A stretch of 64,000 bases of DNA from Psammoneis japonica (lineage: Eukaryota): positions 1 to 64,000 of the forward strand of contig QPGO01000224.1 of assembly GCA_008632985.1 (NCBI GenBank), in the 5' to 3' direction. Each line of letters begins with the position of its first letter. Positions within the stretch are counted from its first letter, which is position 1. Both the position numbers and the translations under genes were made by a program. Of the stretch, positions 12,184-43,610 are shown one piece after another. The notes under the pieces were generated by a model that saw only the letters and a list, made by a program, of their open reading frames with translations, was not told where the DNA came from and did not search any database.

Positions 12184-12967
12184 CTATGATGGCCTTCCTG
12201 CAACACTGACAAGATTGATACAATAGCGATTTCCGTTTCGGTCGGGCAAATTGTGGCCCAAATGTGTTCCATCTACAGACACGGTCTCACCCGAACCCTT
12301 GAGCACCCTGACGTTATCCCAAACAACCTTGTGAGCGCAAAAGAAGGAGAAAGAAATGAGTTAAATAGAATAAATAGAATAAAAAAGACACTCTTCCATT
12401 ACATGCAAACAGAACGCTCACTTCATCATCTCGAAAGGACGGCCACCCGTGAACTTGTGACTCAGCAATAAATTGTTCGGCGCTGCGGTTAATGGGCGCC
12501 ACAAAAAGCGGTTTACCCGTGACAGAGTCGTAAAACGTGATTGGCCCCTTGGCGTCCCGAACCACGTTTTCAAACTCGGTGCTTTCAAAGTATCCCCCCA
12601 TTTCGGCAAAATGCCGGTTAAAGTTGCAAATCTTATCGGCTAGTTTGTTGGAGACGCCGTACATTAAATCCGACTGGACCGGTTTGGTCGATGTTCCATG
12701 CTCCTTGGGAGACATGATGGATTCATCGCCCAGTCTCATTTTGCCGCCATACTCCAACGCCACTGCAGGCTGCTGGAGCAAGCTGAATCCCGCCACGGCC
12801 GCCGTTGAGGCTGCCTTGAAAAACTTTCTTCGTGAAGACGACGACGACGACGACGACTTGGTGGGATTCTTCATGTTGCAGGCAACGGTGGTCCTAGCAT
12901 TGTTTGTTGCCACGGGAGAGAATGCGCTTGCCGTTGCAGCGAAAAGGAATGGTGTCATAAACTTCAT
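12184..12967 (-). CDS. MsrB/SelR-like methionine-R-sulfoxide reductase family protein, plastid and probably thylakoid-lumen targeted; exons 12422-12967 and 12184-12327
   Basis: ASAF signal, then RR..F...AVA Tat-like signal; FYDSVTGKPLF..HGWPSF. GT-AG intron at 12328-12421. Exon 2 reads VVWDNVRVLKGSGETVSVDGTHLGHNLPDRNGNRYCINLVSVAGRPS*. Confidence 0.85.
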
Positions 12968-13587
12968 TTTGCAAAATTCGTTTATTGATTGGAAGTCTGC
13001 TGATGTGCCGGAATTTCACTGTTTTGATTTTGTTTCTTGTGAGAATGTGAATATAAGAAAATAAGAGTTTCCTTCCACTGCAGTTACTCCTGGTTGGTCT
13101 CTTGGTTCCTGACGCGTTCCTGGTGCAAGTGTCGAACAATGAGGAAAAGCAGCAACTCGCCGGCGGCAAGGCCAAGTGGCAATCCGATAATCATCGCCTG
13201 ATGACTTGGCGTTTTTCTGACACGACGGCGTTGTGGTTTTGGCGGACGTCGTGCGTTTCATTGGCAGATTTTCCACCACCCCCGCGGGATTGCAACGGAG
13301 TTGTTTTCCGTTAATATGGCGGGAAAGTTTATAATGACTTTAAGAGAGTGAGGGTTTTAATCATAATGATAAATTTATTAAGATTTTATATTAATGAAAA
13401 GTCGTTTTCACGACTGAAATCGAAAGTCACGACTGACGTCACACAACGAATGAATGAGATAAATGAGTCACATCGCATAACGCACAACAACAGCAGGAAG
13501 AGATGAGACGAGAAAACAAACGAGGCAGAACGCGACAAGTTGCCGTTGGCATCATCAGAAGGACGATACAACGTACTGATTGCGACC

Positions 13588-18924: not shown

Positions 18925-21900
18925 TCACTTGGGGATCCTCTGCTCTTCAATGCAGGAGAAGATGTTCAACACTAGCTGCTCATACTTGCTGTCGCCTACA
19001 AAGCCCTCTGGATCCGATGCCACATGGTTGAGCATGTGATTGTTCAAGACACTCCGAAGTCGAATGAAGGGAACCCGCTGAGGAAACGTCGAAACTGAAA
19101 CAGGTACCCATTGATCTGCAATGTAGAGCCATTCATCTCTGTTGTTGGAGCTTTCTTCTGGCCATTCTTCTACTCCGTTGTCAGCCTCGTTTACGTTGCT
19201 AGTACTATCCTTTTGTTTCTGCCGCGGCATTCCAGCAGAGCTATCGCAAAACAAGGCAAGCTCCAGTGGAGAAGCTGCTGTAGTGACGTGCAAATAAGGC
19301 ATCTTTGTGGTTCTCAGTTCGTTGTACAAGTACCAGTGAGTGCGATGGCCATTGTCGAAATTGACTGAAGCAGGATGCATTCTAGCTGCCGGGTGCGCTG
19401 TATCCCTCGTTGCAAACTCGCCTTTTCCAGCAATCAAATGAGCGATATGAGGTGTCGCCCCGCAAATCAGTGCGGCCTGCGCTGCAACACGACTGTTGTT
19501 GGAATTGAAAACTTCCCAATCAGTCGACGACGGCAAATGATCTTTCATTGACTGCTCCAACTGTCGCCTGACTCGCAATATTTGCTCAAAGATGAGTCTC
19601 GCCGGGTCCATCTTTCGTTGCTCTTTTTCTTTTGCAATGTATGAGTCGACAGCAAGGAGTCTCACTACCACATCACTGCAAATTTTGTCCTTGCCAAAAG
19701 AGTTGTGACGAGTATCCTTCGAAGGTCGTTTACCAATATTAAAGGCCTTGGGGACAGATAGGAGAGCCGCAATTGTAAGAGCAGAGTCAATCGCGCGGAG
19801 AGCTAGCCCCAAGAAGAGCATCCTTCCAATCCGAGGCGATGCAGGTACTCCAGCAACTGCATGACCAAGACGTGTCAGGTCGACTTCCATCGACTCCAAA
19901 TCATGATGGTTACTTTGAAGTATTACAAGATTTTGCTGCGACATGGCAAAGAGTGTCTGCCTCAGTCTGAGTGGAGAAGGCGGGTCTGGTGCACCTAGAA
20001 GCAAACCCAGCGGGTTCCCCGAAGATGGATGGTACAAAGACAAAGAATGCAGAACTAACTGCGAGAGGTCCATGCGCTGCATCTCGGGGAGAGTAAAGGA
20101 AGTGAACGTTGATTCCAAGTCTTCTCGTGTGTAGAGCCGATAACAAGTTCCAGCAGACACCCGACCTGCACGCCCAGCTCGTTGCTTGGCAGATGCTTGC
20201 GAAATATCAACCGTAGCCAATTGAGATCCAACCACGGAGGTATTGGCGGCCCTGGATGATGAGTCCAAGAGAGAGTACTGTCGTTCTCGTCCCGAATCGA
20301 TGACAATCTTGACGTCTGGAATCGTTAAACTAGTCTCCGCAATGTTCGTCGAAAGGATGATCTTGGAACCAGGCTGAAAAACACGTGCTTGTTCTTTGGA
20401 CGCAACAGAAGAATGCAAAATGCAAACTTTGGCTGGATTTAGATTGTTCTGCTTTCTCTTTTGAATGCGCCTGCTGACAGATTTGATCTCATCCATACCA
20501 GGCAAGAAGCACAGAATAGATCCTTTGCCCAAGCTTCCGTCTTGAAGTAATTGAAGAATCAATTCAGCGCACGCTTGGCAGAGATCTTCGTCAAGGTCAT
20601 CTCCTGCTTTCCTTCGTACCTTTTGCAGCCAATTCAATTTCCTAGGGAACCCACGATCTCCGACATGGACAATGTCGATTGGGAAACGACGAACATCCGG
20701 CACATCCACAACGGCCACTTTACCATTCTCATCAAAGTATGTTTCCCACTGGTAAGTCTCCAATGTTGCACTCATCAGAGCGATATGAAGAGGCTGTAAG
20801 GTGGGATGATTACGTCGATGTGCTTGCGCTTGCTTGGCTAGAGCGAGCAATAAATCAATGTCTGCGTTTCTTTCATGCACTTCGTCAATAACCAGGTGAG
20901 TAATACCACTGAGCAAAGGATCTTGCGCGGCTCTTCGAAGAATGACACCCGGAGTCTCAAAGTCGATAGACTTTTCATTGGAGGAGGACGGCTTGGACTC
21001 GAATCGAATCGAGTATCCAATGGGGCATCCGGGTTGACCAAGTGTAAAATCTTGCTCAAACGCCACTCGGCGAGCTGCAGCTTGACAAGCAAGTCGGCGT
21101 GGCTGAGCAACCACAATCTTTTGACAAGTTTCGTCAAAAAGACTAAGCATCAAGGGATAACGAGTTGTTTTCCCACTTCCTGTACCACCACGAACAATCG
21201 TAACGACAGTGTCGTCATCGCAAGGGATTTGCTTCTCCACCTGATCTATAGGCAGCGACAATTTCTTTTGGTGTGATCGAAAGGAGGCAATTCGTCGTTT
21301 CAGCGCTTTCTCGCTCCGCTGCAACGACTTTTGGTCGTGATTGCGCATATTGTGCCGCAATATGCTAGAGAATGGACTTGTTCTTTCAGGATTCTTCGTG
21401 TCAGGTGCTTCCGATAAAATGTCATCCACAAGCTGTTTGATATCCCCAAAGCGATGCTTTGGTAGCCGAACAAACAGTTTGGCCATTCCAAAGGAGTCAA
21501 CTCGTGTTTGAAGCATATCGATAATTTCCGAAACCTTACTGTTTGAGTGTTGCCTACTCACGTCCTTGCCGATCTTTTCCAAGGCGACTAGTTCCGCATC
21601 GGCCTTGCTCAAATTGAACAATTTTTATCGATCAATCCCGTAATACCCTTTATTTTTCCCGACCCCATAATGTTGGCCCAATTCTGAATCGCACTATAAT
21701 CTCGGTGATTGGAATGGTGTTGTACTTGTGGCAACTTTTCTTTGCACGACAACGTCATGGCCCTTGCCCCCAACAAGGCCATGGGATTCTCGCGCACTGC
21801 ATGAGAAAATATGATTCTTCCCTTGCGATCCGAAGCTTCCGGAAATTGTACATCCATGGGTAAATTGAGCCACGAGACGCCTTGAATCTGTCGTGACACG

Positions 21901-22759: not shown

Positions 22760-23340
22760 GCATGTTGAAAAGGACGGAGTTGACAACACATTCAACATTG
22801 ACTGTGTCAGTGGTCCAGCTCTGTGTCTCCCAACTCAGAACCTCTTGCCAGCAGCTTTCGAAAAAGAGCGAGTGCAAATGGACAGCTGTGAGAGAGAGGT
22901 TGATGAAGTCATCATGCCATTGATTTCTTGACATGCCCACCAACAACAACTTGTGCTGGTGGCAAAACATTTGAGAAGAAGAAGGGCAGAGAAGAAGTGG
23001 GTGTGTGCTCTTTTTCTTCATGGGGCAGCCTCCCCTCCCAGTCTTTCAAAGAGGTGTGTGGGCAGTGTCAAGAAGTTGCACAAAACTGTGATTGCACCAG
23101 CAGACCTTGCACGCACACATCATGCTCCTCTGTGCCTGCAAAGATGGTGACAAAAACAAAAAGACATCCAAAATGTCTTTTTTGAAAGCTGGCGGTGGCG
23201 GCGCTCTTGCTGCTGCGCTCTTCTTGTGGATGATGGCACATTGCTGAGCACACATGCTGACAGCGATGGCATCATTTTTCTTGAATGCAGATGAGAAGGA
23301 GCTTGCATTGGACAACCAAGGTGTTGTGGAAGAGTCTCTT
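22760..23340. other. Small TpA/CpG-depleted island (decayed repeat fragment)
   Basis: About 580 bp with essentially no TA between TA-normal flanks. Confidence 0.75.
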
Positions 23341-26839: not shown

Positions 26840-27421
26840 ATGACGACGACACAACAAGAACAACAAACCATGATTGAACCAAGTAGTGTCAGTAGCACTG
26901 AAAAGGAACGACCCAAGCTCGTGTTGGATGCGTCACCGACCGCATCGTTAGAAGACGACGACGACGACAATTCGTCGCTGTCGTCTGCCGAAGACGATGA
27001 CTTTGACGCTCGCGATTTGCTTGCCCGAGCCAAGAGCCGATTGCAACAGGATGATTTGAAGGATAAGGTCAAGGAATTACAAGAAGAATTGAAACACAAA
27101 AACGATCAGATTGCCTCGCTCCAACTCGAGCTTCGTCGGGGCAGTACTTCTTCGCATTCGGGTGGTGGTACAGCGCACCGGTTTTTTGACGTGAGCGAAA
27201 CACGAGCCGAGGTGGAGATGGAATTTATGAATGAGCTCGCCAAGCTATCAACGCAATTGGCGCAAGTACAAGAGCAGCATGCCAAGGAAATGAAAGAAAA
27301 GGACAAGGAAATTGAATTGCTCAAGCGCCAATTGAATGGAGAAGAAGAAGTTGCTCAAGAAGCGACTGAATCAACTGAAGAAGCAACGGATCCATCAAAG
27401 GAAGAAAGCGAAGAGAGTTAG
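26840..27421 (+). CDS. Acidic coiled-coil hypothetical protein
   Basis: 193-aa ORF, E/K/Q/L-rich heptads, in a gene island. Confidence 0.7.
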   Translation: MTTTQQEQQTMIEPSSVSSTEKERPKLVLDASPTASLEDDDDDNSSLSSAEDDDFDARDLLARAKSRLQQDDLKDKVKELQEELKHKNDQIASLQLELRRGSTSSHSGGGTAHRFFDVSETRAEVEMEFMNELAKLSTQLAQVQEQHAKEMKEKDKEIELLKRQLNGEEEVAQEATESTEEATDPSKEESEES

Positions 27422-29122
27422 GAGCCAAAGCTGAGCCGTAGCCCCACTCCCATTTAGACTGTAAAAATACACCAACTCTGACGAAGTGTTGTTTTCTTCT
27501 ACTGCTTATTCTCTCCAAGAGCGGATGGCTTTAAGACTGTTTTTGCAGTTGGTCCAACCTGAGAGAAAGAATGCTGGCTTTTGCGTACAGGAGGACTGTT
27601 ACTATTAGGACTAGCCCTATCAACTTCCTCTCTAGAGTAGGGCCTTATGGTTAGCTGTTGTCAATGAGAAAAGTGCTGTTTTTGTGTGTTGCCACTCTTG
27701 GCTTGTGTGCACTCAAATGCCATTGTGCTCAAACGTGGCTGCCACACCACTGATGTGGGGATCCAAGAGCCACTCCACCACCGGCTTTAAAATGTGCCAA
27801 TGGAAAATGACAAAGCACTGTGCCACTCTTGGCTTGTGTGCACTCAAGTGACATTGTGCTCAAAAGCAGCTGCCGTGCCACACAATGCAGATCCAAGAGC
27901 TGCTCCACACCACCAGCTTGTTTGAATGCTGGCACTGATGGAGAATGACAAAAAGCACTGCTGCACACAAACCACAAATTTGCAGCAGCTCCAGAAGCTG
28001 CTTCGTTGGCCAAGCGGTGAAAGCACAAATCAATGTCATCAAGCAGCTTGGCTGCTGCTGCAGCAGCAGCTGTGCCAAAAACACTGTGCAGCAAAGTGCT
28101 GAGAATTGAGAATGTTGTTGCAGATCTTGGCGCTAAAGAAACTGCAGTGTGGATGGTCAAATGCACCCAAAAAGCACCGCCACAGTGTGCACATGCAGAG
28201 CGCACAGCCCACAGCACAAGAAGAGCAAACAACAAGGGTGTCAACATGGCAGCTGTGGTGATGAAGATGCCCCACCTGTGAGACAGCACTGCCACTTTTC
28301 CTGACGTTGAGAGTGAAGATGGAAATCATGAAGATGGCTGCAGAGGGCAAGCTTTGAAGACAAGAAAATGCAGCTGCAGCTCAGACAAAAAATCAAGCAC
28401 ATCTCCTTTGCTTGACTTGAAAAGTTTCTGTCAAATGTGGTCCATTTGGAGCACTGCTGACTGTGCTCAACTCTTCAACGTTTTCTTTGTCTCACACCAG
28501 ATTGACGCCAAGGTGCTGACACAATGCACCAGGCTCCTCTGGCAAAAAAAGAACAAGGTCAGAGCACTGCCCCTAACATCACACAAGCCATCAAAGCAGC
28601 AGCTGCCAATGAGATGAAGCAGACAGTTGTTCATGCATTTGGTGGGGTGGGGTGTCAAAAACTCATGGAGTTAAGAAGCTGTTGAGGATGAAGACTTGCA
28701 CAGGTGCTCTCTGCAGCTGTCTTGCTTGCAGTGTGCCATGGGAACAAGCTCCCTGAACAAACAGGACACACTTTGTTCAACTGCACCACCAGCAACAGAA
28801 GTGAACAAAGACTTGAGAAAGGCGCTGAGAGGCTCAAGATGACAGATTGAGGTTTGTTGCCACCTTGACACAGTGGTGGCAGACTAAAATGGAGGCAGCA
28901 GGCCTTCATCAGGGCAGTTGGCTGGCTTCAAAGTCAGCTGAGAAAAAGGCAGTCTAACACCACACTCTCAACTCTTCAAGATGACAGAGGATGCCTCTGA
29001 CTGGCAATGACCTTCATGGCTTCAATGGCAGCAACTGATTGAAAGCTGGAGAGGATGTTCTCAGCAATGGTCATGCTGGCAACACAGAGCATTGTGTGCT
29101 GCAAAAGATCCAGCATTGCCGG

Positions 29123-30590
29123 CTCAGTTTGTTGGTTTCACCCATTTGGGGATTCCCCAAAATGGCAAGGGCAAGGGGGAACTGCCTTGCCCTTTTGGAG
29201 AGCACCCGGGAAATGAGGACAATTTGACGGGAAGGAATGGCTGAAAGGGGTCAGGGGAAGGAACAAAAAATGAGTGCAGGGGAAGGAACAAAAAATGAGT
29301 GCAGTGCGGCAGTTCCTGTCTCATTTCAATTAGAATCTTTTGAAAATGACCCGCGACACAAAACGCACAAAACAGCCAAGGGCGCCTGCAGAATCTGCAC
29401 ATGTTTGCACCGAAACTGTGATGTTCACACAATTTGTGCAAAAATGGACTTGACTCCTGTCGGGTCAAGCCCATTTTTGCAAGTGTGTGGAAGAAAAATG
29501 GGCTTGATCAGAAAGGAGTAAAGTGCATTTTTTGCAAAGTCAAAATTCACTGAGGACAGACAGACAGACTTTTCTTGGCACTGCTCTGCACAATTTCTAC
29601 GTGATGACTCTGCAGCACGAAAGATTGCTGTTGACATGGGCGTGTGCACTTTTTGTCACATTGTCCAGCCAGCCAGCCATGGTCTGCTGCCAATGACCAT
29701 GACGGATGCATCGACAAATCGACACAAAGCGGCCCCTTGTGGCAGAGCAAGGGAAGAATGAATTTTGCCATTGGACCACACATGTCAACATTGCTCGCGC
29801 GCGGGCTCCATTTTTGCCTTGGCCTTTGCTCCAGAGCCGTTGTGGTTTGCATCATTTGTGACCACATGACACAAGAAGAAAAAACGACACACTGCATTCT
29901 GCACATGAGACAGGTCAAAGGGAAGAACAAACATTGTCAATCAATCCACCACATTTTTGTCAACCATGTGTGGCTCCACTTTTGCCTTGTCCTTCACACT
30001 GGATGCCTCATGGCTTGCCTTTTTGAATGCATGGCAAAAGAGTGATCTGAATGACCCCCTTCATTCTGCACACAAGAGGTGTGAATTGGAAGAATGATTG
30101 TGGCTGTTCAATCCGCCATGTTGTCATTGTCAGCTGTGCGCATGGTTCTGCTTTTGCCTTGGCCTTCACTGTGTGCCTTCTGGCTTGCATTTGTGGCTGC
30201 ATGACAAAAGAAAAACTGACGACTGATGACTCAATTGTGCTGGCATTTTGCACATGTGCAACCACATTTCACACTGTGTTTCATGTTGCAGATCCTGTTC
30301 AATTGACATTGTCGAATGCATCGAACAGTGTCATGATTGATGAACAACAGCTGTCACAAATGGGGCATGAACGCGGCATGGCGTGTTGCCCATTTTTGTT
30401 GTGGCTGGTCAATTGTCTGGCTCCTGTGTCCTGGCACGTAGAAGGTGCAGAAATGTGTGGGAGGGAAGCGCGTGGGGAATTCCCAATGTACAATTTTTTG
30501 TTCATCTGTGAAGTGTGCATGTGACGAAGCGCAGCTCATGGCGACTCCCCAGGAAATCATGCTTTCCATGGAAAATTGTGGCGACAAGCC
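29123..30590 (+). mobile_element. Dispersed repeat family B, copy 1 (extra segment about 29300-29670; 3' end truncated)
   Basis: Colinear with 48371-49542: ttggtttcacccatttggg.ttccccaaaatgg, gacacaaagcggccccttgtggcagagca, gaaggtgcagaaatgtgtg. Confidence 0.85.
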
Positions 30591-30745
30591 CTTCAGGGGG
30601 CACTGACCACTGCAAAGAGCAGGGTGGGCAGACCATGCAGGCCCTGCTTTTGATGCGGCTGAAAACAGAAGAGCAACAAGTCATCAAATGACAGAGAGTC
30701 ATTTGACACATCACAAGGGCAGTTTTGCAAGCTCCTGACCCCATC

Positions 30746-31130
30746 ACGGTTCCAGTCCTAGGTGGGACTTTTTGTGACATTTGCCCCGTAGAATTCTACG
30801 TGCGAGCTCTGTAGTTCGTACTCTGGTTAATGGATATATTTATCTTCGACATAAAAAACGGCCAAGCTTGTAGTACATCTATCCCTGTTCGTACTCGAAG
30901 TTTTGGATAATGCGCCTGCCCTACGCCGTTCTTAAGACACTCGAGAATGGCGTAGAAGAAAAAAATATTAAAAGTTGTTCAATGGATAGCCTGATAATTG
31001 TGCTATAAAATCATACAAAATTTCGCCAAAATCACGTAGAAATGTACGTCCGTGACATACGACGCGATTCAAAAAACCATCGATGTCACAGTTCAGTAGT
31101 GCGAGGTCCCACCTAGACCTGGAACGCGTC
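30746..31130 (+). mobile_element. MITE family A, copy 1 (TpA intact)
   Basis: TIRs gttccagtcctaggtgggac / gtcccacctagacctggaac; colinear with 35497-35884. Left end altered and no TSD found. Confidence 0.9.
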
Positions 31131-34100
31131 GGAAACTGCCCCATTGCATTTGGTGTGCTCGCATGTTGCACAATTTGTGCGGGTCACTTCCTTGTTCAAT
31201 GCTCGTCATTCATCAATTTTTGTGCTTTGTGCATGCTCAATGGTCAAATCATCCCCTCATTTTCCCCCCTTTTCTGTGATGACCATGAAAAGATTGCCAA
31301 AAAGAGCAGATGATGGACAAATCCTTGTTGTTGTTGAGGCAGACTGCAGCTGTTGCAGGAATTGAACAGAAAGGCACCTTGCAACCCCTCTTCAAAATGC
31401 TGAGTCATCGACCAGTCTACGTTGTTTTCATTTGTGGGTGCAGCTCCATTTTCAGCTGACTCTCCAATTTTCGTTTGTGTCTCTGAGCAACATCAGCTCA
31501 ACTCCTGTGTTGTTGCACTCACCGTCTCCATGTTCAGGACTGTCCAAGTCCATTGGGAGAGATGATGCTGCAATTGACCTTCTGCCTGCATCAAAAAAGC
31601 AATCTGAAATCTTTGTCGGACACGTGCAAGAAGCACAGAGTCAACAAGCAGGACACTTGAGAAGGCCAAGAGCAAGCAGACACGTGCAGAGGCAACATTG
31701 ACAAACATGGACAAAAAAGACAAAAGAAATGTGCACAAAAGGAAAAGGATGTTAACCTCGTGTCCAACTCAGATCATTCTTCTCCAATGACATTTTCTTT
31801 GGGGAATGACATTTTCTTTGGAGAACTTGAATCTGACAGCTCCGGCCAGCTGTGGGGTGGAGAAATGCTTTTTCCACAAAAAGGGTGACAATCCCCGGTT
31901 TGGTCATTTGGTCATGCAGCAACAGCTAAACTTCTTTTGTTGCAAGCAGAGAAAAAGCTTGGGATCTTGCAGGAATGGTTGAAAAGGAGCACTTGTTGTC
32001 CACTCTGTTTGGTCCAGTTCAGTCTGTGCATCCAAGCCAGAACAATGCACCCGAGATGAACAAAGTTCAAATGAGAGAGTCCCAACAGGAAATGATCAAG
32101 GAAGGCTGCTGTGCCAAAGGAATGGCTGCCGTGTGCAGAGCAAAAATGGCTCCTCAACTGTCGCTGCTCCTCAGCTGCACTCCCAACAAATGCAGACATG
32201 CAAAGGGGCATTTGCGCAAAATTGTCACTGCGTCAAGCGACAGCGAATCCTTTCTTCATAATTTTGGGCATGAGATGAACAAAACCATGGAACACACCCA
32301 GGACACAAGTTGCCTTGTGTGGGACTTTCAAGTGTTGGTTGACAGCATGGGAAAACTTTGGCACATTGATGCCAACTGGTGATGTGTTTTCATCCCAGGT
32401 GAGAAACTTATGGACACATCACAAGGTTTTCTGCGTGTTTCTACATGAGACGTACATTTAGCACCAAAAATCTTAGTAAAAAACGAGCTCCATGACAGCA
32501 AAAACATGTTTTTCCATGTCTCGAACCACAAACCACAATTCGCGCAAACCGAAAATGGCACCATGCCGTCGCCATGAACTCGTCCATTCTTGCACCAACG
32601 GATGTTGTGACTGAGAAGGTGAGAATGCCGAGACAGGTCAATGAGACAATGCTCAATGCGATGATGTGGTTGAAAATTTGATCTTTGTTTTTTGTTGTGC
32701 CTTGTGGATGGCCTTTTGACTCATGATGTTTTTGATGCCTCTTTCTCTCTTCCTCAGCTTGCGAAGTGGGATTCTCATCAACGCGCTGCTCCATCTGCTT
32801 GACACCGGATGCTGACAATGAAGAATGTTTCTATGACACGTTGCTGTGATTCTCACAATGCATCGTCCGCACTTTGAGTCGTTGTGGACAACGCTTTTGG
32901 GTCGCGCGACAACATCAGATTTCGCTGCCGACAAGAGAATCGTCATGTGTTCGGTTTTGAGGGTGTGTGAGGATAAAGAATCTCAGATGCAAGTGTGACA
33001 GTTTCATCATTGTAAAGTGGAACAATGCCATTAGCGACATCTCAGTGTTGCAGCCATTTTATTTTATTCCAAGATAGAACTGGTCATTTTGAGTGGTGAA
33101 ATTTTGTCAATGTTTCATCTTTAACTCCACTTGGGCATGTCAAATCACATGATGACTGGACACACATTGAACTTTGACGCCACCATTTCAATCCTGTTGT
33201 TTTATTCACTCAAGCATCCCACACAGGTTGACAAATCAGTCGATCTTTGAAATGGCCGATCGCGCAAAAAAATCACGTGCGAAGTCAGTTCCCCCGATTT
33301 TTCTTGTGCAAATGACAGAGTTAGAACGCCGTTCTTTTTTGGCATGAGCTCTTTGTACAATGAACAATGCGTACATTCTTTCAAAGCAGTCAGATTCGGT
33401 GAAAGAAACAGTGGAACAGTCTCTCAAATGCACCAGAACAACAACAACGAGCAGACAGCTGTCAGTTTCACTCCAAAAAATGCCGCTTTCGAGACAGCGC
33501 TTTTCTTGCACGCACCCTTCAACCAATGAGAATAACGGCTGGCTTTTCAAAATAAACATGTCTGTGGAAAGAAGAAACGAAAAATTGGGGGAAAGTCCAG
33601 TCAGATTTGCTCGCACAAAAAGCACGGCGACGGAAAAGGGACAGACGAAACGTCTCACCTCCGCATGCGCGTTTCTCACCTGGGATGAAAACACATCTGG
33701 TGTTTTGAATGGAGTCCCAATGACAAAAGAAATTTTGTCAGAATCAACAAGCGGTGACACCAAGAAGAGCGTTGTGATCAGGCAAAGAAAACATTTCTCA
33801 GTTGTGTCAAAATGGCTGAGCAGATTGTGGCAAACAATGCTGCAACAAAGACTTGGCGCAGCATTCTTCCTGGTCACGTGCAGCTGTTGGAAGAGTCCCT
33901 TGTTGCACATGCAATTTTCTCCCAGAAGTGACATGGAGGCCACCACTGCACCAGAAATGTCATTGAGGCAGCCACTGCATGTGCCCAAACCACAAAGCAG
34001 CTGGTCAAAACGAGCAGATGTTGTCATCTGTCACACACAGTTTGAAGCCCCCTGGCTTTCTTCACAGCCCGTTAACCTCCACAGTGCAAGTTCTGTTTTA

Positions 34101-35496
34101 AACGACTGGCAATGGTCTGGCTGGTTAGAGCACCAAAGGTGTGGCCACTGCACCATGTGCTTTGCACACAGCTCACACCTCCGATGATCAGCTTCACTCT
34201 CCCAAATCAGTTTGCTCAATCTTCACAGTGTCTTTCCAAAATTCTAGATCAATGACGAGCAACTTCTTTGTTCCATTGTCTTCATCTGCAACAATGCAGT
34301 TGCAACCATGAGAACAATCAAGAGGTTGGAAGTTGTGGTCACTCCACAGCTTGTCAATCACAGTGCCAAAGTGCCCATCAAACTCTTCCTCTTCGGGACA
34401 CCTCCCCTTCTGCAGACCAAGGAACCTGACCATGCCAGATGGTGACTGCGCAATGAATTTTGGAGTGGGGACAAGCTCACCCCATGCCTTTCTCAGCTGC
34501 ACGCATGCCTTGACCTCATTCTCATGACTTTCAAAATTCTTCGATGGATCAAACTGCTTTGCCGCAACCTTCTCTTCACCACAGCCACTCTCAAAGACGT
34601 CTCCGTTCCTTCTGACCCCCAACAACCTGCCAATCCTCAAAGTTCAAAAATCAACTGGACATGCAAATTGGTCTTCAAAAGAAAACAAATCAAAGAAGGA
34701 GCAGTCTGGCGGGGTGAGTGGGAGTGACGTGATGTTCCCTTCCTCATCCTCAGCAGACCTCGACTGAACCAACTGAGGCAGTGATGACACCAAAGTCAAC
34801 TGGCTGCCTTCATTCTTCATGCGGCACTCAGGAGATTTGTGTCTTGGTTTCTTGGACACAGGGCTAGATCCACTGCTCTTGTCACTTCGGCTTCCTCCAG
34901 ATGGTTCATGGTCACTGCTTCCATCACCACCAGAAGAGTCATCATCGTTGGGATGATGTCCAGTTTGCTCTTGATCTTCAACCACTGACTCCGACATGTC
35001 AGCTTCACAAATCGGGGTCTCCAGAAGCCAACTGATGCCAGTGCAGGGAGATGTTTCAAGGTTGTGATTTCCATTGGTCGGTGCTGGACTTTTGTTGGTG
35101 AGACGAATCACACACGCCCAAGCATGAAGAAAGTCTTTCTGACCAGCAATGCACGCGTCAGCAATTTCCACCCCGTGAACTTCTCTGCCTGGTCCATCAA
35201 GGTGGATGAAGTGCACTTTTGAAGCACAAAAAAGAGCTCCGCATCAAACAACATTGTCGACCATGTGTGCAAATTCCTGGGCAAGCGGGTGGCAGATTTG
35301 AGACACCAGTTCTTGGATGCTCTTTTTCCCTTTTTGTTGCTTGCTTCTTGACTGCCTCCTCACAACACTGCTTCAACACGTCAGATTTGTTTGGAAGCAA
35401 CACATTGTGCAACGTCTTTGCTTCAAAAACTGCTGTTGTCTGAGCTTGGTCAGGGCCATTTCCTGTCAGTTTCATGTGACAGGCTTTGTCAGGCCT

Positions 35497-35884
35497 GACG
35501 GGTTCCAGCCCCAGGTGGGACTTTTTGTGACATTTGCCCCGTAGAATTCTACGTGCGAGCTCTGCAGTTCGCTCTCTGGTCAATGGACACATTTGTCTTC
35601 GACATAAAACAAACAGCCAAGTTTGCAGCACACACATCTCTGTTCGTACTCAAAGTTTTGGACAATGCGCCTGTCCCACGCCATTCTTAAGACACTCGAG
35701 AATGGCGTAGAAGAAAAAAACATTAAAAGTTGTTGAATGGATCGCCTGATGATTGCACTATAAAATGATGCAAAATTTGCCAAAATCACGTAGAAATGTA
35801 CGTGCGCGACATGCGATGCGATTCAAAAAACCATCGATGTCACAGTTCAGCAGTGCGAGGTCCCACCTAGACCTGGAACGCATT
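35497..35884 (+). mobile_element. MITE family A, copy 2; 4-bp TSD GCCT
   Basis: gcct|gacgggttccag...ctggaacgcatt|gcct. Confidence 0.92.
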
Positions 35885-36386
35885 GCCTTCCCATTGTTGG
35901 ACAGCGGTCCCATTCTTCAGAATCCACTTGGAAGGGCAGACACATGAGACCAGCTTCACAAAACGGCTCAAACACAAACGCATTGAGGAAGCTTTGCTCC
36001 ATGGTTTCGTTCATTGGCAACATCTTGCTGATGACGGTTGTTGCATGCAATGGCACAGTCATTGGCAGTGGAAGCCCGGTCATGTCGAACTTCTCTTTGA
36101 AAAGATTCGTGAAATCTTCCCACTTTTCAATGGTCGGCAGATGGCATTGCTTGCTTCGTTGTTCGTTGAACTTGCTTTGTTGACTTGTTGTTGTGCCATC
36201 AGCATTGCACATTGGTGGCAAAATGGTTGATGATGCCATCCCTTCTTGATCATGACATTGGAACGCACGCGCATCATGCTGCACAAAAACTTCGTGGCAC
36301 TTTCCAACAAATTCTCTACGGGCTCGGTTGAAGTCTTTTCTTGCCCTCATCTCCTCCGGTGTCAGAGAGCATTCTTTTTGTTTGAC

Positions 36387-36662
36387 TGATGGAAATTGAA
36401 GGCAAATGGCAAGAATTCAAACAACAACTCCTTGCTGCTGTCTAAATGGCAGATGAGTCTCCGCTCAGAGACCGTTGCAGGAGCCAAAAGACTTGCAAGT
36501 TGGCATGGTCCGGCTGCTGTCATTGTTCTTGTGAGCCTTGTGGCTCGAAAGCAAACTGCATCGCGCGCGAACACGCGGAACTAAAGCACACAAAACTGTG
36601 CGCGGCAAACTAAACAGCGCGCAACATTTCGCGCGCACTTGAATCCTGTTCAAATCCTGTCA
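36387..36662 (-). repeat. 3' LTR (276 bp)
   Basis: Aligns without gaps to 43218-43493. Confidence 0.97.
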
Positions 36663-39600
36663 CTCCCCAGTTTGCTTGAGGAGTCACAGAAACAGATTCG
36701 ACTTTGGATGAAATGAAGTTCCAGAACATGAGGGGGCGGAGAAGGTCCCAGATTTGGGAGTGACCACAATGCTTGCTGAGGATGTCAGCAGGGTTGCGGG
36801 AGCCTTCGATGAAGTGGAGCTCAAGGCAACCAGAGGCAATTGCCTCACGCACACGGTGGAATGACAGTGCGGTGTGTCGCTTGTGTAACTTGGAGTGCGG
36901 GATGGTGGCACCATCTACAACCGACTTGTTGTCACCGAACATGCAACTGACATTGCGGATCGGGACGCCAAGGTGGCGCAGGGTGATGCGCAGGTCAACA
37001 ATCTGCTCGACACAAGTCCTTGCGGCAACAAATTCAGACCCGCAGGTCGCAGTCTCCACGGTGGCTTGCTTCTTAGAGAACCAATCAGCCGGGAATTTGT
37101 TGAGGAAGTGGAGCATTCCCATGACAGAGCGTCCGGTGAGCATGCAATGGTGCAGGTTTGCATCGACATAGTGGGTGGCAGTGACGAACTTGCCAAGGGG
37201 CGGTGGAGCGTCCTTCGGGATCATCTCTTCTGCTTCGCCGCACACGGAATGCATCCATTCACAGGCCGGAGCAGGGAGATCCGAACAGTCGGGCTCTTCC
37301 GTGCGAACGCAGAGAGCACCGTGTCGCATCTTGGAGAGGTGCCCACAGACGCGTTTGGCACGATCCAAGTGGCCTTGATGGGGCACAGCTCGGAAGCTAG
37401 AGAGTGACATGACGGCTGTGGCAATGTCAATTCGACCAAGGGACACTGCCCATTGGAGTGAACCAACAAGAGACTGGAACTTGTGAATGCCATCGGGTCC
37501 CAGCAGTTCGGAAGTGTCCAGTTCGGGGTGGTCACCCTTCTCCAGAGGTGACAGGGAGTTGGTGGCAGGTTTCTCCCCAAACAGTCGGGCACAGCTGTCG
37601 ACCATGCGCTCGATGTACTTGCACGGAGACAGGCACAAGGTTCCGTCGGGATCCCGGGAAAAGTCGCAACCCAGATGGAACTCAATGGGTCCCGTGCCCT
37701 TGAGCTTGAACTTGCACTTTTCCGTGAGAGCATCGACAAAAGATTGAGGGTCCTTCATGGCAATGGCGAGGTCATCCACATAAACGGCAATGCATTCACA
37801 GTGGTCGCTGTTCCTGCGCATCCAAATGTCGGGTTCGGCGCGGCAGGGGAAGAAGCCTTCAGCTCGCAGGCAGTCGGCAAAGCGCTCGTGCCAGCGGAGA
37901 CCAGAGCTGCGCAGTCCATGCAGGGCCTTGTGGATGACAAGGATGTGTCCTTCGAGTTTGCCAAATTCGGGTCCGGCCACAATGTAAAGCTTGTCCTTGG
38001 TGGTGGCTTCAAGGCAGGCATTGCCAATGTCGGTGGCCCATGTCTCCAACTCGTTGAGTTCGGCCAGGAAAATCATCAGCCGAAGGCCACGGAGGGAGAC
38101 TGCTCCGGAGTGGACACTGTCGACAGGTACGTCTGTGAGGTGCCCGTCGGCTACGAGTCGTGCCTTGTGGCGACCGTCGTGTTTCACGTCGCACACTGGG
38201 TGCACTCGGATCTTCTTGTGTCCCGCAGGAGGAGTGGAAGACTCGAAGGGCCCGCAGTCATGGAAGACTTCGCATTCGTCGAGTTGGTCCATCTCGAGAT
38301 TAGTTGCATCTCCCCATTTGCGGTTGCCGTTGCGTTCGTCTGGTGACATGGCGTGTTTGCAGTTCCGGGGAACTTCGCACCTGCACTTGCAGCGAGGTGC
38401 AGTGCGGAAGGAGCGAAGCTTGGCTTGGTTGGCCATGCGAAACAGCTTCTTTTGGCGCCTCGCGATGGTGCGGAACCGCTTCCAGCCATCCGTGTCGAGG
38501 AGTCCGTTCTCTCGTGCATGGATGGCGCAGGTGACGGGGTCGTCCTTGGCGATGATGGCAAGAGGCTCGGACGTGATCTCCCCACTTTCCCATTCAAGCA
38601 TGATGTTGTAGCTTGAGCCTTTCCAGGTTGGGTCGTGAGGCTTCAGAGGTCCTTCGTGTGACACGATGCGTCGAAATTTCCAAGTGGCAGTGTCTTCGTC
38701 TTCTTGCTCAATGTGATTCATGATGTCATTGTGGGCAAGGACTTCCTCGCATTCGTCGTTGTTGACAGAGCAGACGAACTTAGTGAGCTTGGGGTTGCTG
38801 TTCACTTTCCATTCGTGGTCTTCGACGGCCTTGACGATGCGAGCTCTGTGGCGTTGTCCGTCCTCTTGTGGCTGCATGAGGAAGGTACGTCCAATGATGT
38901 CTTGCAGATCGAAAACTGGCATCTTGGGTGTCCTGATCTCCCCATCAGGAGAATCGACGGGGTTGTCGTCATGGCGAGATTTGATGATGGGTTCAGGTGG
39001 CTCCCCATCAGGAGGATCAAGACGCAGGTTTCGAACGGCAGGATCGGTGGTAGCGGAGCGGACGTTGGACCGGCAGAGGATCTTCTGAGTCTCGTCAGAG
39101 AGAATCTTGAAGGTCATCTGGTGGCCGACGTGCTCAGCAATGCCAACGAAGCGTCCACACAACTCACGGGATTCGGACGGCCAATCGGAGTCATCGAGGT
39201 GGAAGCACACGGGTTCCCACCAGTGAAAGCGAAGCAATGGGCTGATGTCCGGGGTGGAGCCAGTGAGAGTCTCGAGGGGCGTGCGCCAGTGGAGACGTGG
39301 GGACGCTGTGTGGTTGAGTGTGAAGCACACATGCATGAGCGCCAGCAGCCATGTGTGGGCGGGCGAACCAAAACGATCCATGACAGTGTTCGCCATGCGC
39401 TTCACGGTCTGGTGTCGACGCTCGGCAAAATTTTGGTGTTGCTGGTGAGGCTCACTTTGCCAGCTGGAGATGAAGAGGGCCCACAGGATCCCAAGCACTT
39501 TGTTGCTGATCTCAACTTGAGCACGGTCGCCAATGAGTTTGGATGGGGCACCACGCTCACGGATCTGATCCTCGAGTGTGTTGACAAACTCTTTGTCCGT

Positions 39601-42278
39601 CTTGGTGCCGCAGACGTCAGTGACGGTAGACTCGGTGCCAACAAACAGTTGGGCACTGGTGCAACCAGAGTCGACGGCCGGGGTGTCGGCATGAACGGTG
39701 TCAGTGGCGACAGGCTCGTTGCGGCGGTGCACATTAAGGGCGGGGTTGGGTGATTTGCAGGCCTTCCTAAGGTGTGCACCGGTGGGCATGCGGGCGCACT
39801 GCGTGGTGCAGTCAAAAGTGCGACGGACCGCATCAGTGGGCAGGAAGCCAAAGCAAGGCCGAAGAGACTTGAAGGGCGGGTCCTTGGGCTGTGCAGTGCG
39901 CTCCGGGGGCGGGACATCATCGTCCTTGGGGTCAATCGCATGTAGATGACACTCGTAGAACATGTCGTCGTTCGGAATGAGGTGATCATCGAGGGCGGAC
40001 GCGTGATCGGCAGACAAGGAAGTGGACATGATGGTCTCGTTGACAACGACACGATGACGGCAGTTGCCGCATTCGTCAAACAGGTTGGCAGTGGGATCGT
40101 CCTGCAGGTCAGAGATCGCGTCACACCACTGGTCGTCATCAGTGACAGAGTGATCGAGGACGGAAGGATCCCATGTGTCATCACCGGTGAGGATGACATG
40201 GGGCAGGGTGTCCCATTCGGCGTCAGTGTAAGGTCGCATGGCAACACAAGGCAGGCCGGCCTTGATGTCAATGGGGATGACACAGCCATCAGGAGCGGCA
40301 ATGCATTGCAAGCCGTTGGGCACCTTGACAGAGTGATCGTTGACATCCTGTTTGCACCATTCGAGCTGGCCGCAGGAATGGATGGTCTTGCCCTTGCCCG
40401 TGTGTGCGCACTGATGGAGGATGGCGATGACGGGACCACGCTGGGTCTCAATGACGGCACCAGCGGTGACAATGGGGATGTCCACCAATTGATGGTCGTC
40501 AATGCCCTGAACGTCGACTTGGCGAGAGGTGCGTGCAATGATGCGAACGTCGTCGCCAGCAATGCCGCCGTTGGCCCCACGATTGACTGGAGCGCCAGTG
40601 CGTGTGGAGCGATGAGCAGAGGCAGAGTGAATGACATTGTGGTTGTTGACGCGGTGGCAAGTGCGGCCGTTAAGTTCCATGTCATCGGCAGAAGCTGGCG
40701 GGGTAGAGGGAGCGGCGGATGGCCCCGGTCGACTGGCATTGGGGGCTTGGTTAGGAGACAACAGACGGTGCAGATCACCGGGTGGCAGGGGCTTGCGCTT
40801 GGTGAGGTGCGCCAGGATGGGATTGTCCGAAGTGGCACCCACATTTGGAGCGGAGTCACCAGAGTCAGAAGGAGTCGTGTTGGACAAGTTGACATCACCG
40901 TCACTCCCAAGGCGTTGGTCGTGAAGGTTGGCCGTAATGGACTCATGGCAGTTGCTGTGTCGCGGGTTACGGGGAGGCGGACGAGAATGCTCAAGGATGA
41001 TCGCCTTGGAGGAATGGGGCAACGAATCCCAAATCCGTTGGTGGTCGGGAGGGAGACGTTTCCATTGGTCACCGGTGAGGCTGGGACAACGGGTGCAGGC
41101 AGCATTGGCCTGAAGGACGTCAATGTCACTGTCAATGTCGTAGAACACATCGTCGGACGGTTCCTCGGAGCAGACGTCGTGTGCGTGTGTGGCGCGGCGG
41201 GGAGCTCGAGGTGTCGTCTTGGGTTGAAACGCACTGTCGCATTGGGCTGCCGCGGAGAGGAGCAAGCCACAGCATTGATCACATGTGAGGCTCTTGCCAC
41301 TCTGCGTGCGATGCTGATCAGCTTGGTTCTTGACAGCACGGAGTTCCTTGACAGGGTGCACGGCATTCTCGAGCATGACGCGCTTCTGTCCTTCAGAGAA
41401 GTGGTCACTGGCCGGGATGAGTGCCTCGCACTTGCGCAACTGATCTTGCCAATGAAGGATGAACCCGTGGGTCAGACCTTTCCAAGCACCATCACCCAGA
41501 CGTGTGGTGGTGAGGTGCGTTGGCAGGGTGGAGGACTCGACAGATGCACGGGTGGAGGCGAGCGCGCATTCAGACAAGGCGCGGCAGACGGTCTGTGCAT
41601 CAGAAGACTCCACATTTTCGCGGATGAGAGCCTTGCCCTTGTCGGTGAGAAGGATGTGTTCGAAGACGGCGAACATGTGCTTTTGCTGTTCAGCAAAGAG
41701 CAGTTTGTCTTCGGGGCTGGTCGGTTTGTACGACGAGTCTAGAATGCACTCGACGTCTTGGGCACGGGCTTGTGCCACAAGTGAGGTGTGCCAAGTGTGC
41801 CACTGCTTGTCGGATTTGAGAGCCGTGAAAGCAGTGGGATCCCGCTTGATGCCTCGCTTGAAGTCCCGCACCGGGTCGCGTGCCTTGGTCGGGTTGGTGA
41901 CATGCGGAGGTGCGAGGGGTGAGCTGCCGATGGACACAGAAGACATGTGGTCGGGGCTGAGGCGGTGGGCAAGGAACTCGTCATGCGTGAACAACGAGGA
42001 GTCATTGGCAACGTCAAGACCTTTGTGTGCTTTGACAATGCACAGACTGGCTAGAGCTGCTAACATGTTCTCACAACCACGGGCAAAGGGATCACATTAG
42101 TGCCGTTGTCGCACTCAAGCCAGTCGATTTGGGACGGTGTGAACGTGAACAGTTCTTGATGCGAGTCCGTGCCGTCTTGTGCCAAAGCCAAATGGAGAGG
42201 GCTCCCAGCACCTTGGGCAAGCACGGTTCCAACAACATGCTCGAAACCATCAGTTTGTTGCTGACGAGTGAGAACCAT
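36610..42278 (-). pseudogene. Copia gag-pol polyprotein, open for 1818 aa but missense-inactivated; frameshift near 42080
   Basis: RGANGG protease with the catalytic D read as N; integrase SEPHQQHQNFAER; RT HKARLV and YVDD; RNase H DNKSV and NPADILSK. Only 9 Tyr counted in 1818 aa. Confidence 0.95.
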
Positions 42279-43203
42279 GGCAGACAAAAGTGGTGTCAGG
42301 ACAAGCAATTCTTGTTGGGAAGCGAAGGCAGACTTGAAGCTTGGGTGAGAATGGACTTGACTTGAAATGGACTTGACTTGAAATCTTGATCTATCTTAAA
42401 ATCAGAAGTCGCCGGGCTTTGCTGTCCCGTTCGTTGTTGAGTGCTAAACTTCCCATCCGGTCCGCAGAGTTGTGCCGGCACGTCCGAACCCGCAGCTGGC
42501 GGCGCTTTGGGTTGCTCACGAGCGGAGTAGCGGGTTGTAAACCCCTGCAGGCAAGCTGACTAGAGGTGGACAAGACCCCCGAACCGTTCTCATTTTATGT
42601 TGGTTGGATTTCCCGATCAGGCTGGCCAGTTGACGCAGGCGTCAGGCGCTGTGGACGAACGAACAAACGCGGGAAAGCACCCTCGCCCCAACGCAGGCTG
42701 TGATCACGGCTGCTTGCTCTCACAGTTGTCCTCGTGGACCCAGTGGAACTGTAGAGCACCAGCAGTCCGGGGTAGATCAGGTGCAATGGACTCGGTGTGC
42801 TTGTAGAGTGGTGGCAAAACCGCAGTCCGAAGAGTGGGTACAGGTTCTTGGCCGTGAAGACATGCATGTGTGCACATGTCTTCAGCGACGAAGATCCTTG
42901 AATGTGCAGGGTTCTTGACCGTTAACCGATGAACAGGCATGTCAAGGGATGAGGATCAAGGATAGACTTGGATGTGACCGTTGATTGCATGTCTTCAGCG
43001 ATCAAAGGCAGCATAATCACTCCAGATATCCAGCGGTAAGGAGACTTGACGGTGACGTTAACTTCCTGCCGATGCCCTGGCATTGAATGCGCGTAGACTT
43101 GCCGATGTATGTAGAACATATACGGAGGTCCACGTAGAATTGAAATAGCGTCGTTGGTAAATCAACGACGACGATGGCGGTTGCTCAATGGGTTGACAAT
43201 GAG

Positions 43204-43217
43204 CAAGACTGTTAATC
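43204..43217 (-). promoter_or_regulatory. Putative primer-binding site complementary to the anticodon arm of tRNA-Asn(GUU)
   Basis: Sense strand GATTAACAGTCTTG abuts the 5' LTR. Its complement GA-CTGTTAA-TC is an Asn anticodon stem-loop. No TGG-type PBS is present. Confidence 0.6.
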
Positions 43218-43493
43218 TGACAGAAATTGAAGGCAAATGGCAAGAATTCAAACAACAACTCCTTGCTGCTGTCTAAACAGCAGATGAGTCTCCGCTCAGA
43301 GACCGTTGCAGGAGCCGAAAGACGTGCAAGTCGGCATGATCGGGCTGCTGTTGTCATTCTTGTGAGCCTTGTGGCTCGAAAGCAAACTACATCGTGCGCG
43401 AACGCACGGAACTAAAGCACACAAAACTGTGCGTGGCAAACTAAACAGCGTGCGACATTTTGCGCGCACCCAAATCCTGTTCAAATCCTGTCA
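43218..43493 (-). repeat. 5' LTR (276 bp)
   Basis: Aligns to 36387-36662. Confidence 0.97.
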
Positions 43494-43610
43494 TTGACGT
43501 TGAACCGGGTCACAAAAGCACTCCCCTGTGAAAGAACCAGCTCCTCAACTTTGTTCGCCATCTGCTCTGCAACATTTTCAGAGGCAATTTCAACGTTGTT
43601 TGCCATCATT

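Follow-up and report, generated by a model that had tools for sequence, protein, structure and literature searches.

Introduction

RIP in ascomycete fungi changes C to T at CpA/TpG and thereby makes TpA, and its products are AT-rich and TA-rich. In methylated transposons, CpG decays by deamination of 5-methylcytosine, and transposon methylation occurs in diatoms. ADAR and APOBEC edit animal retroelements, either on RNA or on reverse-transcription intermediates. ADAR prefers a U on the 5' side of the edited A and a G on its 3' side, and the target of TadA lies in a U-A-C loop context.

TpA-specific hypermutation was first described in 2026, for one species and two viral insertions, in a preprint on Bigelowiella natans (Mettrop et al., bioRxiv 10.64898/2026.01.13.699255). 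In that text, 231 of the 302 nuclear mutations found in mutation-accumulation lines fall in two integrated viral regions, and 230 of these 231 are A→G or T→C changes, all at TpA. The rate is given as about 6 × 10−7 per site per generation, about 1000-fold above background, and only some lines were affected. The B. natans genome is reported to contain 124 clusters depleted of TpA and enriched in CpA+TpG, and DDE endonuclease and reverse-transcriptase domains are enriched among its TpA-depleted CDS. Mettrop et al. proposed an ADAT2-like protein as the DNA adenine deaminase, which is unproven there too. The preprint text, as far as it was available, is silent on CpG, MITEs, diatoms, and flanking-base context (bioRxiv 10.64898/2026.01.13.699255).

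Here, we explored TA loss in the window, that is, the whole 64-kb stretch of diatom DNA that was analysed. In the literature searched, which covered openly accessible papers, neither depletion of TpA nor its hypermutation was described for any diatom; one paper retrieved, PMC9258296, proved unrelated.

Results and Discussion

Two Kinds of DNA in the Window

A per-kb scan of dinucleotides divided the window into two kinds of DNA. In gene-bearing DNA, the observed/expected ratio (obs/exp) of TA was 0.4-0.9 and that of CG about 0.8-1.3. In the other kind, TA was 0.00-0.2 and CG often 0.02-0.5, and CA and TG each reached 1.5-2.2. To 1-kb windows we applied the cluster cut-offs of Mettrop et al. 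for B. natans (rho TA ≤ 0.43; rho CA+TG ≥ 1.52). The cut-offs were passed by 32 of the 64 1-kb windows, which form three clusters of 8-9 kb each (Table 1). Thus, half of the window passes cut-offs that, in the available preprint text, mark 5% extremes in B. natans.

The window also contains genes for a DEAH-box helicase and a fatty-acid desaturase. Protein matches showed that the best named relatives of the helicase are diatoms (Nitzschia, 65%; Amphora coffeaeformis, 64%), and those of the desaturase are Thalassiosira profunda (56%) and Amphora (52%). No match comes close to 100%, and the host is not B. natans. A short spliced-leader motif, sought as a sign of dinoflagellate origin, gave 0 matches, and such an origin was rejected. 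The window is eukaryotic, and its host has the look of a raphid pennate diatom. The DNA around both genes has a TA obs/exp of 0.4-0.8. A repeat pair at 60438-60668 and 63655-63891 keeps TA in both copies and is uninformative on TA loss. When the 86 ORFs of at least 110 aa in the depleted domains were scanned against Pfam, none passed the cut-off (84 had no match and 2 fell below it). Many long spurious ORFs occur in the depleted DNA because the TAA and TAG stops are missing there.

Table 1. Features of the window. For the MITE copies, TA and CG were counted within the element columns of the four-copy alignment (A1), with obs/exp in brackets.
Feature	Position	Strand	Remarks
Most extreme TA-depleted cluster	4001-12000		rho TA 0.02-0.21, rho CG 0.02-0.41, rho CA+TG 1.62-1.99
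DEAH-box helicase	18925-21624	minus	long uninterrupted frame
TA-depleted, CA+TG-enriched cluster holding copies 1 and 2	28001-37000		rho TA 0.04-0.34, rho CA+TG 1.53-1.83, rho CG 0.15-0.77
Direct repeat left of copy 1	30735-30744	+	10 nt, read from the sequence; not a canonical 4-bp duplication
MITE copy 1, TA-intact	30745-31130	+	TA 30 (0.95), CG 25 (1.38), GC 0.429
5' terminal inverted repeat arm of copy 1, TA kept	30749-30768	+	20 nt; complementarity with 31106-31125 is 90%
3' terminal inverted repeat arm of copy 1, TA kept	31106-31125	minus	pairs with 30749-30768
Right partner of the direct repeat flanking copy 1	31136-31144	+	9 nt, five bases past the element end
MITE copy 2, intermediate	35497-35884	+	TA 12 (0.43), CG 20 (0.99), GC 0.459; exact 4-bp duplication GCCT at 35493-35496 and 35885-35888
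Copia-type LTR retrotransposon	36386-43493	minus	LTRs 36386-36662 and 43217-43493, 91% alike
Copia reverse-transcriptase frame	36610-42096		open frame of 1828 codons
MITE copy 4, advanced, divergent interior	43628-44023	minus	TA 5 (0.19), CG 14 (0.65), GC 0.471; exact 4-bp duplication GGAT
Third cluster, copy 3 inside, copy 4 adjoining	44001-53000		dinucleotide scan
MITE copy 3, advanced	51492-51893	+	TA 4 (0.15), CG 19 (0.81), GC 0.486; exact 4-bp duplication GTCT; 5-nt insertion breaks the 3' inverted repeat
Fatty-acid desaturase	59024-60361		long uninterrupted frame

A MITE Family at Different Stages of TA Loss

A BLAST search of copy 1 against the window found four copies in 64 kb, at coordinates that an earlier sequence-only reading had placed correctly to within 1-6 bp. 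The copies are 385-402 bp long (the element is about 390 bp) and have terminal inverted repeats of 20-25 nt, those of copy 4 being 25 nt long and 80% complementary. Seven inverted-repeat arms were observed in the window, versus 0.03 expected by chance. Exact 4-bp target-site duplications flank three of the four copies (copies 2, 3, and 4), whose element termini read GACG...CGTC. Copy 1 is without such a duplication, and it starts with a base unlike that of the other copies. Five additional bases are present at the 3' end of copy 1. The ORF list of the window contains no ORF of at least 110 aa inside any of the copies. By the usual criteria of a small, non-coding element with terminal inverted repeats, the element is a predicted MITE. 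An inverted-repeat search revealed no autonomous element with the MITE termini within the 64-kb window.

Further information on the family was obtained from X1, one public run in which 73% of the sampled words of 27500-37400 were found and which may come from the assembly's own sample. The summed X1 k-mer depth over copy 1 was 9089-13614, versus 65-68 in neighbouring single-copy bins. This indicates that the MITE family has many genomic copies; the summed depth is not a copy count. Fourteen loci in public metagenomes were retrieved with a degenerate inverted-repeat pattern as candidates for further copies and were rejected as chance matches, only the 22-28-nt pattern region matching in all 14.

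TA density is 7-11 per 100 bp inside copy 1 and 0-2 outside it, with sharp edges. The flanks of copy 1 (28001-30745 and 31131-35496) have 39 TA in 7111 bp, which corresponds to 2.1 expected per 385 bp, against the 30 observed (Poisson, P = 2.7 × 10−24). The TA sites of the copies form nested sets: those in common with copy 1 are 12 of 12 in copy 2, 3 of 4 in copy 3, and 2 of 5 in copy 4. Copies 3 and 4 had been said to have lost more than copy 2, and indeed only 3 and 2 of the 30 TA of copy 1 are kept in them, compared with 12 in copy 2.

We compared copies 1 and 2 column by column and found that 39 of the 384 aligned columns differ. TA in copy 1 is opposed to CA or TG in copy 2 in 16 cases and the reverse occurs in 0. 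The change is specific, and all nine letter pairs of this type that the sequence-only reading had quoted are present in the alignment. Copy 1's two other TA that are missing from copy 2 were changed otherwise. The remaining differing columns are 6 with CG against CA/TG, one CA/TG swap (2 columns), and 15 of other kinds. Between copies 2 and 3, there are 10 CA/TG swaps. Copy 2 has retained 40% of TA and about 75-80% of CG at an other divergence from copy 1 of 3.9%; copy 3 has retained 10% of TA and about half of copy 1's CG at an other divergence of about 14%. About 90% of TA has been lost in both copies 3 and 4.

Two earlier statements on these copies can now be evaluated. The process had been called cumulative, which agrees with the nested TA sets and with the directional rise in GC from copy 1 through copy 2 to copy 3 (Table 1). 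Copy 1 had been called TA-intact. Its TA obs/exp of 0.95 bears this out, but it is not wholly pristine: alignment column 99 reads TG in copies 1 and 2, TA in copy 3, and CA in copy 4, and at four further sites copy 1 has TG where another copy reads CA.

Direction of the Change

Nine of the 30 TA sites of copy 1 (columns 103, 110, 112, 148, 157, 199, 263, 292, and 316 of A1) are split sites, with CA in some of the other copies and TG in others. One kind of change from TA accounts for such splits, and a CA→TA process cannot; thus, TA is the ancestral state. The decay of CG was also asymmetric, copy 2 having lost 5 of the 25 CG of copy 1 to CA/TG and copy 1 only 1 of the 20 of copy 2. Because the direction of CpG decay is known and runs the same way as the loss of TA, this result again indicates that TA is ancestral. 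The old domains lead to the same conclusion, since they are TA-free, which is the opposite of the end state of RIP.

A classical RIP-like process would require that CA/TG is ancestral and that copy 1 gained TA by C→T at CpA/TpG. Four of the 30 TA sites of copy 1 (columns 33, 86, 360, and 399) have one non-TA state common to all three other copies, and plain parsimony would read them as gains in copy 1. However, parallel loss is equally expected at these four columns. Gain of TA is also at odds with the nine split sites, with the TA-free old domains, and with the CA/TG swaps in the LTR pair described below. Moreover, copy 1 has the most CpG of the four copies (Table 1) and is the nearest to the family as seen in X1, and its TA obs/exp does not exceed 1. 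We consider a RIP-like origin of the TA in copy 1 extremely improbable. The sequence-only reading had been exposed to one objection, namely that TA might be derived as in classical RIP; TA was found to be ancestral, and that reading stands. The loss of TA is established as directional and cumulative.

The process in the window resembles RIP as a directional transition hypermutation in a dinucleotide context that degrades transposons, reshapes domains, and looks like a defence. In contrast to RIP, TpA is destroyed here and GC rises (from 0.429 to 0.486), and the old domains have a TA obs/exp of 0.02-0.1. A dependence on repeats is not evident here, because part of the depleted DNA (27000-29000) is single-copy.

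The LTR Pair of a Copia Element and the Loss of CG

The two LTRs of one element are identical at insertion. In the Copia element of the window, 24 of the 277 LTR columns differ, and these comprise 5 CA/TG swaps (10 columns), 9 columns with CG against CA/TG, 1 with TA/TG, and 4 of other kinds. Hence 20 of the 24 differing columns are located at YR dinucleotides, versus 4 elsewhere. Since adjacent double changes outnumber single ones in the pair, the ancestral TA/CG must have been hypermutable, and each LTR resolved it independently. Three to four TA survive per LTR at an other divergence of 4/277; so few surviving TA at this divergence show that TA loss is far faster than ordinary substitution. 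The process had been claimed to hit DNA transposons as well. The mutated MITE copies support this claim, and the LTR retrotransposon is mutated too.

CG→TG/CA changes were found between MITE copies, between the LTRs, and between the window's Copia copy and its family. The domains that lose TA lose CpG as well, and both processes end in CA/TG. The loss of TA is several-fold faster, about 4-fold in the MITE series. The stages present in the window are, in order, copy 1, copy 2, and copies 3 and 4 together with the Copia body (TA 0.13, CG 0.9), followed by the 30-36-kb flanks (TA about 0.1, CG about 0.5) and then by the DNA at 4-11 kb (TA about 0.03, CG about 0.1). The CG changes among MITE copies, LTRs, and the Copia family are like the 5-methylcytosine decay of CpG in methylated transposons. 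The CpG decay here differs in being the slower of two processes with the same CA/TG end state. In the simplest view, CpG would be lost as 5-methylcytosine is deaminated, within the same silenced DNA.

Instead of mutation, selection against TA and CG, or a constraint on composition, might also deplete both dinucleotides. The Copia family is very abundant and is TA-poor already as a family. The window's element has a TA obs/exp of about 0.13 and yet an open frame and a normal CG (about 0.9), and selection could have driven the element to shed its targets. However, the Pfam scan found no recognisable coding content in the depleted domains, and, at one and the same site, paralogous copies and LTR pairs have changed to CA or to TG independently of each other. 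In B. natans, according to the preprint text available, there is direct mutation-accumulation evidence for a mutational cause (bioRxiv 10.64898/2026.01.13.699255). We judge it very unlikely that selection or constraint explains the depletion.

Sequence Context and Strand

We classified TA by its flanking bases in 27.8 kb of depleted DNA and in genic DNA. The 105 residual TA of the depleted DNA consist of 2 RTAY, 44 mixed, and 59 YTAR sites, whereas the 873 TA of genic DNA consist of 263, 461, and 149, respectively. The residual classes deviate strongly from a 1:2:1 expectation (chi-square, P = 9 × 10−15), this expectation or genic DNA standing in as baseline for the ancestral composition, and new TAR (e.g., CAG→TAG) could swell the YTAR excess. 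Relative to genic density, retention is 0.006 for RTAY, 0.078 for mixed sites, and 0.32 for YTAR. ATAT and ATAC/GTAT occur 0 times in depleted DNA versus 185 times in genic DNA. These values fit two per-strand rates, with A in 5'-TAY-3' changing about 4-5 times faster than A in 5'-TAR-3'.

If TAY is preferred, mixed sites should resolve to RCAR/YTGY. The excess of the CA classes over genic DNA is +26.8 per kb for RCAR/YTGY versus +13.1 per kb for YCAY/RTGR. Together, the two excesses come to 39.9 per kb, equal to the combined loss of TA and CG in mixed contexts (39.6 per kb). Within the MITE family, the product predicted from TAY was present at 13 of 18 mixed sites in copies 2 and 3 (P = 0.096) and at 7 of 7 in copy 4, these cases not being independent. 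The context trend in the MITE alone is weak, copy 2 having lost 7 of 9 RTAY, 9 of 16 mixed, and 2 of 5 YTAR sites. The four columns that a RIP-like gain could claim also fit the TAY rule: columns 86 and 399 are RTAR→RCAR, as predicted, column 360 is RTAY, for which either product is allowed, and column 33 is YTAR. Taken from these counts, the loss of TA probably prefers 5'-TAY-3' on both strands, which is apparently new.

Runs tests in 5 depleted domains detected no strand-coordinated runs of CA or TG (z from −1.25 to +1.93). The bias of 12 CA to 4 TG in copy 2 is not significant (P = 0.077; runs test, P = 0.15). Both strands are equally affected, in situ.

The window shares with ADAR and APOBEC editing the clusters of deaminase-type transitions in mobile elements. 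The difference is that here a DNA transposon and LTRs are mutated in place, with both strands equally affected. Sites before a purine are the least depleted here, contrary to ADAR with its 3'-G preference, whereas a 3' pyrimidine resembles the TadA context. A preference for 5'-TAY-3' would thus be better explained by a TadA/ADAT2-like enzyme than by an ADAR-like one.

Comparison with Independent Reads

The TA-poor flanks were compared with X1 contigs of k-mer depth about 49-70. Over 5037 matched bases, only 9 differences were found. Coverage extended over 27000-29161, 30404-30777, 31106-32407, 33670-34005, 34750-35204, and 35972-36379, and two X1 contigs span the left and the right junction of copy 1. 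The region 27000-29000 is single-copy at ≥85% likeness in X1, with a depth of 65-68. TG/CA double differences between X1 and the window were noted at 28992-28993 and 44867-44868.

A sequencing, base-calling, or polishing artefact could arise if modified TA/CG were miscalled as CA/TG, or if copy 1 had been 'repaired' to the consensus by multi-mapped reads. Miscalls on both strands of a symmetrically modified site would likewise yield CA/TG alternatives, and at two positions of copy 1 (30867 and 31050) no X1 contig listed has the window's letter. However, exact 31-mers at a depth of 49-70 need accurate reads, and miscalling of modified bases is therefore unlikely. The match of these contigs to the single-copy depleted flanks and to the junctions of copy 1 is strong evidence against an artefact, though not absolute. 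Polishing does not agree with the finding that copies 2, 3, and 4 have not been homogenised, and the signature is graded among the copies and between the LTRs, as would be expected for mutation. An artefact of any of these kinds is in our view highly improbable. The sequence-only reading had likewise argued against a regional sequencing artefact; X1, which is independent at most in its reads, reproduces both the TA-free flanks and the two junctions. The TA loss is real in these reads.

All X1 contigs together show 931 transitions and 164 transversions relative to the window. In the single-copy parts, 9 of the 13 differing positions listed between X1 and the window are at CG, TA, or CA/TG swaps. 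This suggests that even a comparison of haplotypes or isolates reveals the process, the differences listed serving as an illustration.

The Intact State of Copy 1

Most simply, copy 1 would have arrived after the last bout of TA loss in its domain. It is plausible that copy 1 is younger than the other copies, as had been supposed before; the youth test rests on four copies, whose non-TA/CG divergence cannot separate a young copy from an exempt or a converted one. Only the two positions named above, 2 of 385, disagree with every X1 contig listed. Among the contigs listed, so small a discordance agrees with a recent origin of copy 1 from a source still rich in TA. Relative to the three other copies, copy 1 has 4-5 private non-TA changes (columns 144, 277, 314, and 352 of A1, and the CpG at 355), which is not clearly fewer than copy 2. 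The window contains no empty-site paralogue of the insertion site of copy 1, and no joint across 30745-31130, as an empty-site allele would give, was present among the 15 joints listed in X1.

Alternatively, copy 1 may be as old as copy 2 and may have been exempt from the process, or gene conversion or templated repair may recently have overwritten it with the sequence of an intact copy located elsewhere. The missing canonical duplication, the five extra 3' bases, and the flanking direct repeat of 9-10 nt look as if copy 1 had been copied into a break, and the private non-TA changes can be taken in the same sense. Exemption is possible in principle, since in B. natans the hypermutation strikes only some foreign regions and some lines, as the preprint text available reports (bioRxiv 10.64898/2026.01.13.699255). 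However, copy 1 occupies 385 bp within a 9-kb domain with a rho TA of 0.04-0.17 on both sides, and a domain-wide mark should cover it. With 2 of 385 positions discordant among the X1 contigs listed, most of the 'private' changes may mark a subfamily and be older than the insertion. Templated repair would also make the present sequence young and gives the same prediction for TA. We regard an old copy 1 that was exempted or overwritten as unlikely, though it deserves more weight than the RIP-like, artefact, and selection readings, and we favour its late arrival.

A Proposed Process and Its Relation to B. natans

We suggest that, in transposon-rich, gene-free diatom DNA, a fast and directional TpA→CpA or TpG change would take place, through transitions from A:T to G:C on either strand. 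In the same domains, CpG would turn into TpG/CpA more slowly. The four MITE copies would then represent successive stages, with copy 1 essentially unmutated, copy 2 with 60% of TA and 20% of CG lost, and copies 3 and 4 with about 90% of TA lost. Adenine deamination in DNA at 5'-TA, with a preference for a 3' pyrimidine (5'-TAY-3'), may be the underlying reaction. Taken as a whole, this explanation (TpA hypermutation with slower CpG loss, the MITE copies as successive stages, and copy 1 as so far escaped) is in our opinion probably correct; the youth of copy 1, the enzyme, and a defence function are inferences within it.

Judged from its dinucleotide signature, the loss of TA in the window is apparently the same kind of process as the TpA-specific hypermutation of B. 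natans. As far as the available preprint text allows the comparison, both share TpA→CpA/TpG changes and a bias to GC. Mobile or foreign DNA is the target there, with genes spared, and the same may hold here; the MITE and the Copia element are mutated, and for most of the depleted DNA no origin could be recognised. In both, targeting comes in patches or episodes, which leaves room for untouched islands.

Measured against the same text, there are also differences. The host here is a diatom (stramenopile), whereas B. natans is a chlorarachniophyte rhizarian. A MITE family and an LTR retrotransposon are the documented targets here, compared with giant-virus and virophage insertions there. In the window, CpG is lost too, and a 3'-pyrimidine preference would apply. 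The evidence is comparative here, whereas a rate was measured there. Transposons as targets, the loss of CpG alongside TA, and the 5'-TAY-3' preference appear to be new.

Implications for Diatom Genomes

To find the whole signature on ordinary transposons, and in a lineage far from B. natans, would raise this process from a curiosity to a candidate for a general eukaryotic genome defence. The MITE series provides an internal before/after calibration, and the LTR pair provides a clock. A preference for TAY over TAR would narrow the choice of enzyme. The stop-poor spurious ORFs matter for the annotation of diatom genomes.

A wider hypothesis, which we put forward tentatively and hold to be possible but somewhat less probable than its opposite, is that diatoms share the TpA-directed DNA-editing defence of B. 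natans. In this hypothesis, a TadA/ADAT2-like adenine deaminase with a 5'-TAY-3' preference would work with CpG methylation on silenced transposon domains until TA and CG, the two palindromic pyrimidine-purine dinucleotides, are exhausted, and the abundant Copia would persist by having shed its TA targets. If this is true, the system would be ancient in eukaryotes or would have spread between algal lineages. Insertions that have kept their TA, such as copy 1, would then report naturally on its activity, and the composition of diatom genomes would have been shaped by this defence to a major and so far unrecognised degree.

Repeats and transposons in the depleted DNA

The 0.8-kb repeats (see table) lie in DNA that is low in TA, often low in CG, and rich in CA and TG. 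Their alignment contained 180 differing columns, which included 24 CA/TG swaps, that is, sites with CA in one copy and TG in the other, as from separate decay of an ancestral TA or CG, and 21 differences of CG versus CA or TG. Because the k-mer depth over this repeat was 2000–2600 in the public sequencing run X1, the pair represents another repeat family. MITE copy 1 (TA-intact) and MITE copy 3 (most TA lost) are each downstream of one member of the pair, and no homology linking both loci was found in the DNA that separates the repeats from these two copies.

Features of the window with their positions
Feature	Position	Length	Remarks
Repeat pair	29691–30505 and 48597–49407	0.8 kb	77% alike; both in depleted DNA
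Second DNA transposon	32376–33702	about 1.3 kb	Based on terminal inverted repeats and a 6-bp duplication
Copia-type element	36386–43493, minus strand	7.1 kb	LTR retrotransposon
G run	6124–6150	about 27 nt	Uninterrupted; within the most depleted domain
Patch	22801–23200	400 bp	TA 0, CG 5

The terminal inverted repeats of the second DNA transposon match perfectly over 27 nt (32381–32407 and 33671–33697), and the duplication is CTGGTG. The element is low in TA overall, yet six TA are clustered at 32400–32500. The transposon is skipped in one X1 contig, where only seven other letters separate 32370 from 33699; an empty or related site is a possible explanation.

A patch of unusual composition was also observed in otherwise normal gene-bearing DNA, and may be an old small insertion.

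Differences between the window and X1

At 28992–28993, in DNA that is apparently single-copy in X1, and at 44867–44868, in apparently low-copy DNA, the window has TG and the X1 contig has CA. Such adjacent double differences are expected if two haplotypes or isolates each resolved an ancestral TA or CG independently. Inside MITE copy 1, all X1 contigs compared carried another letter than the window at 30867 (20 contigs) and 31050 (19 contigs), and the window's own letter was found in none of them. This could be caused by assembly errors, a contig outside the comparison, or a strain difference.

The Copia-type element

The summed X1 depth of the Copia-type element was 58,000–151,000, compared with 65 for single-copy DNA; thus, its family is present at very high abundance. 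In two X1 contigs, the sequence passes from 36381 to 43494 and the entire element is skipped, which may reflect an allele or a paralogous site lacking the insertion. The element retains an open frame of 1828 codons, and the other phases hold frames of 360–690 codons. Its TA observed/expected ratio is about 0.13, with normal CG and a GC content of 57–59%. At 8 of the 20 positions listed as differing from the family majority, the family has CG and this copy has CA or TG; therefore, the family is TA-poor as such, and has possibly shed its TA targets.
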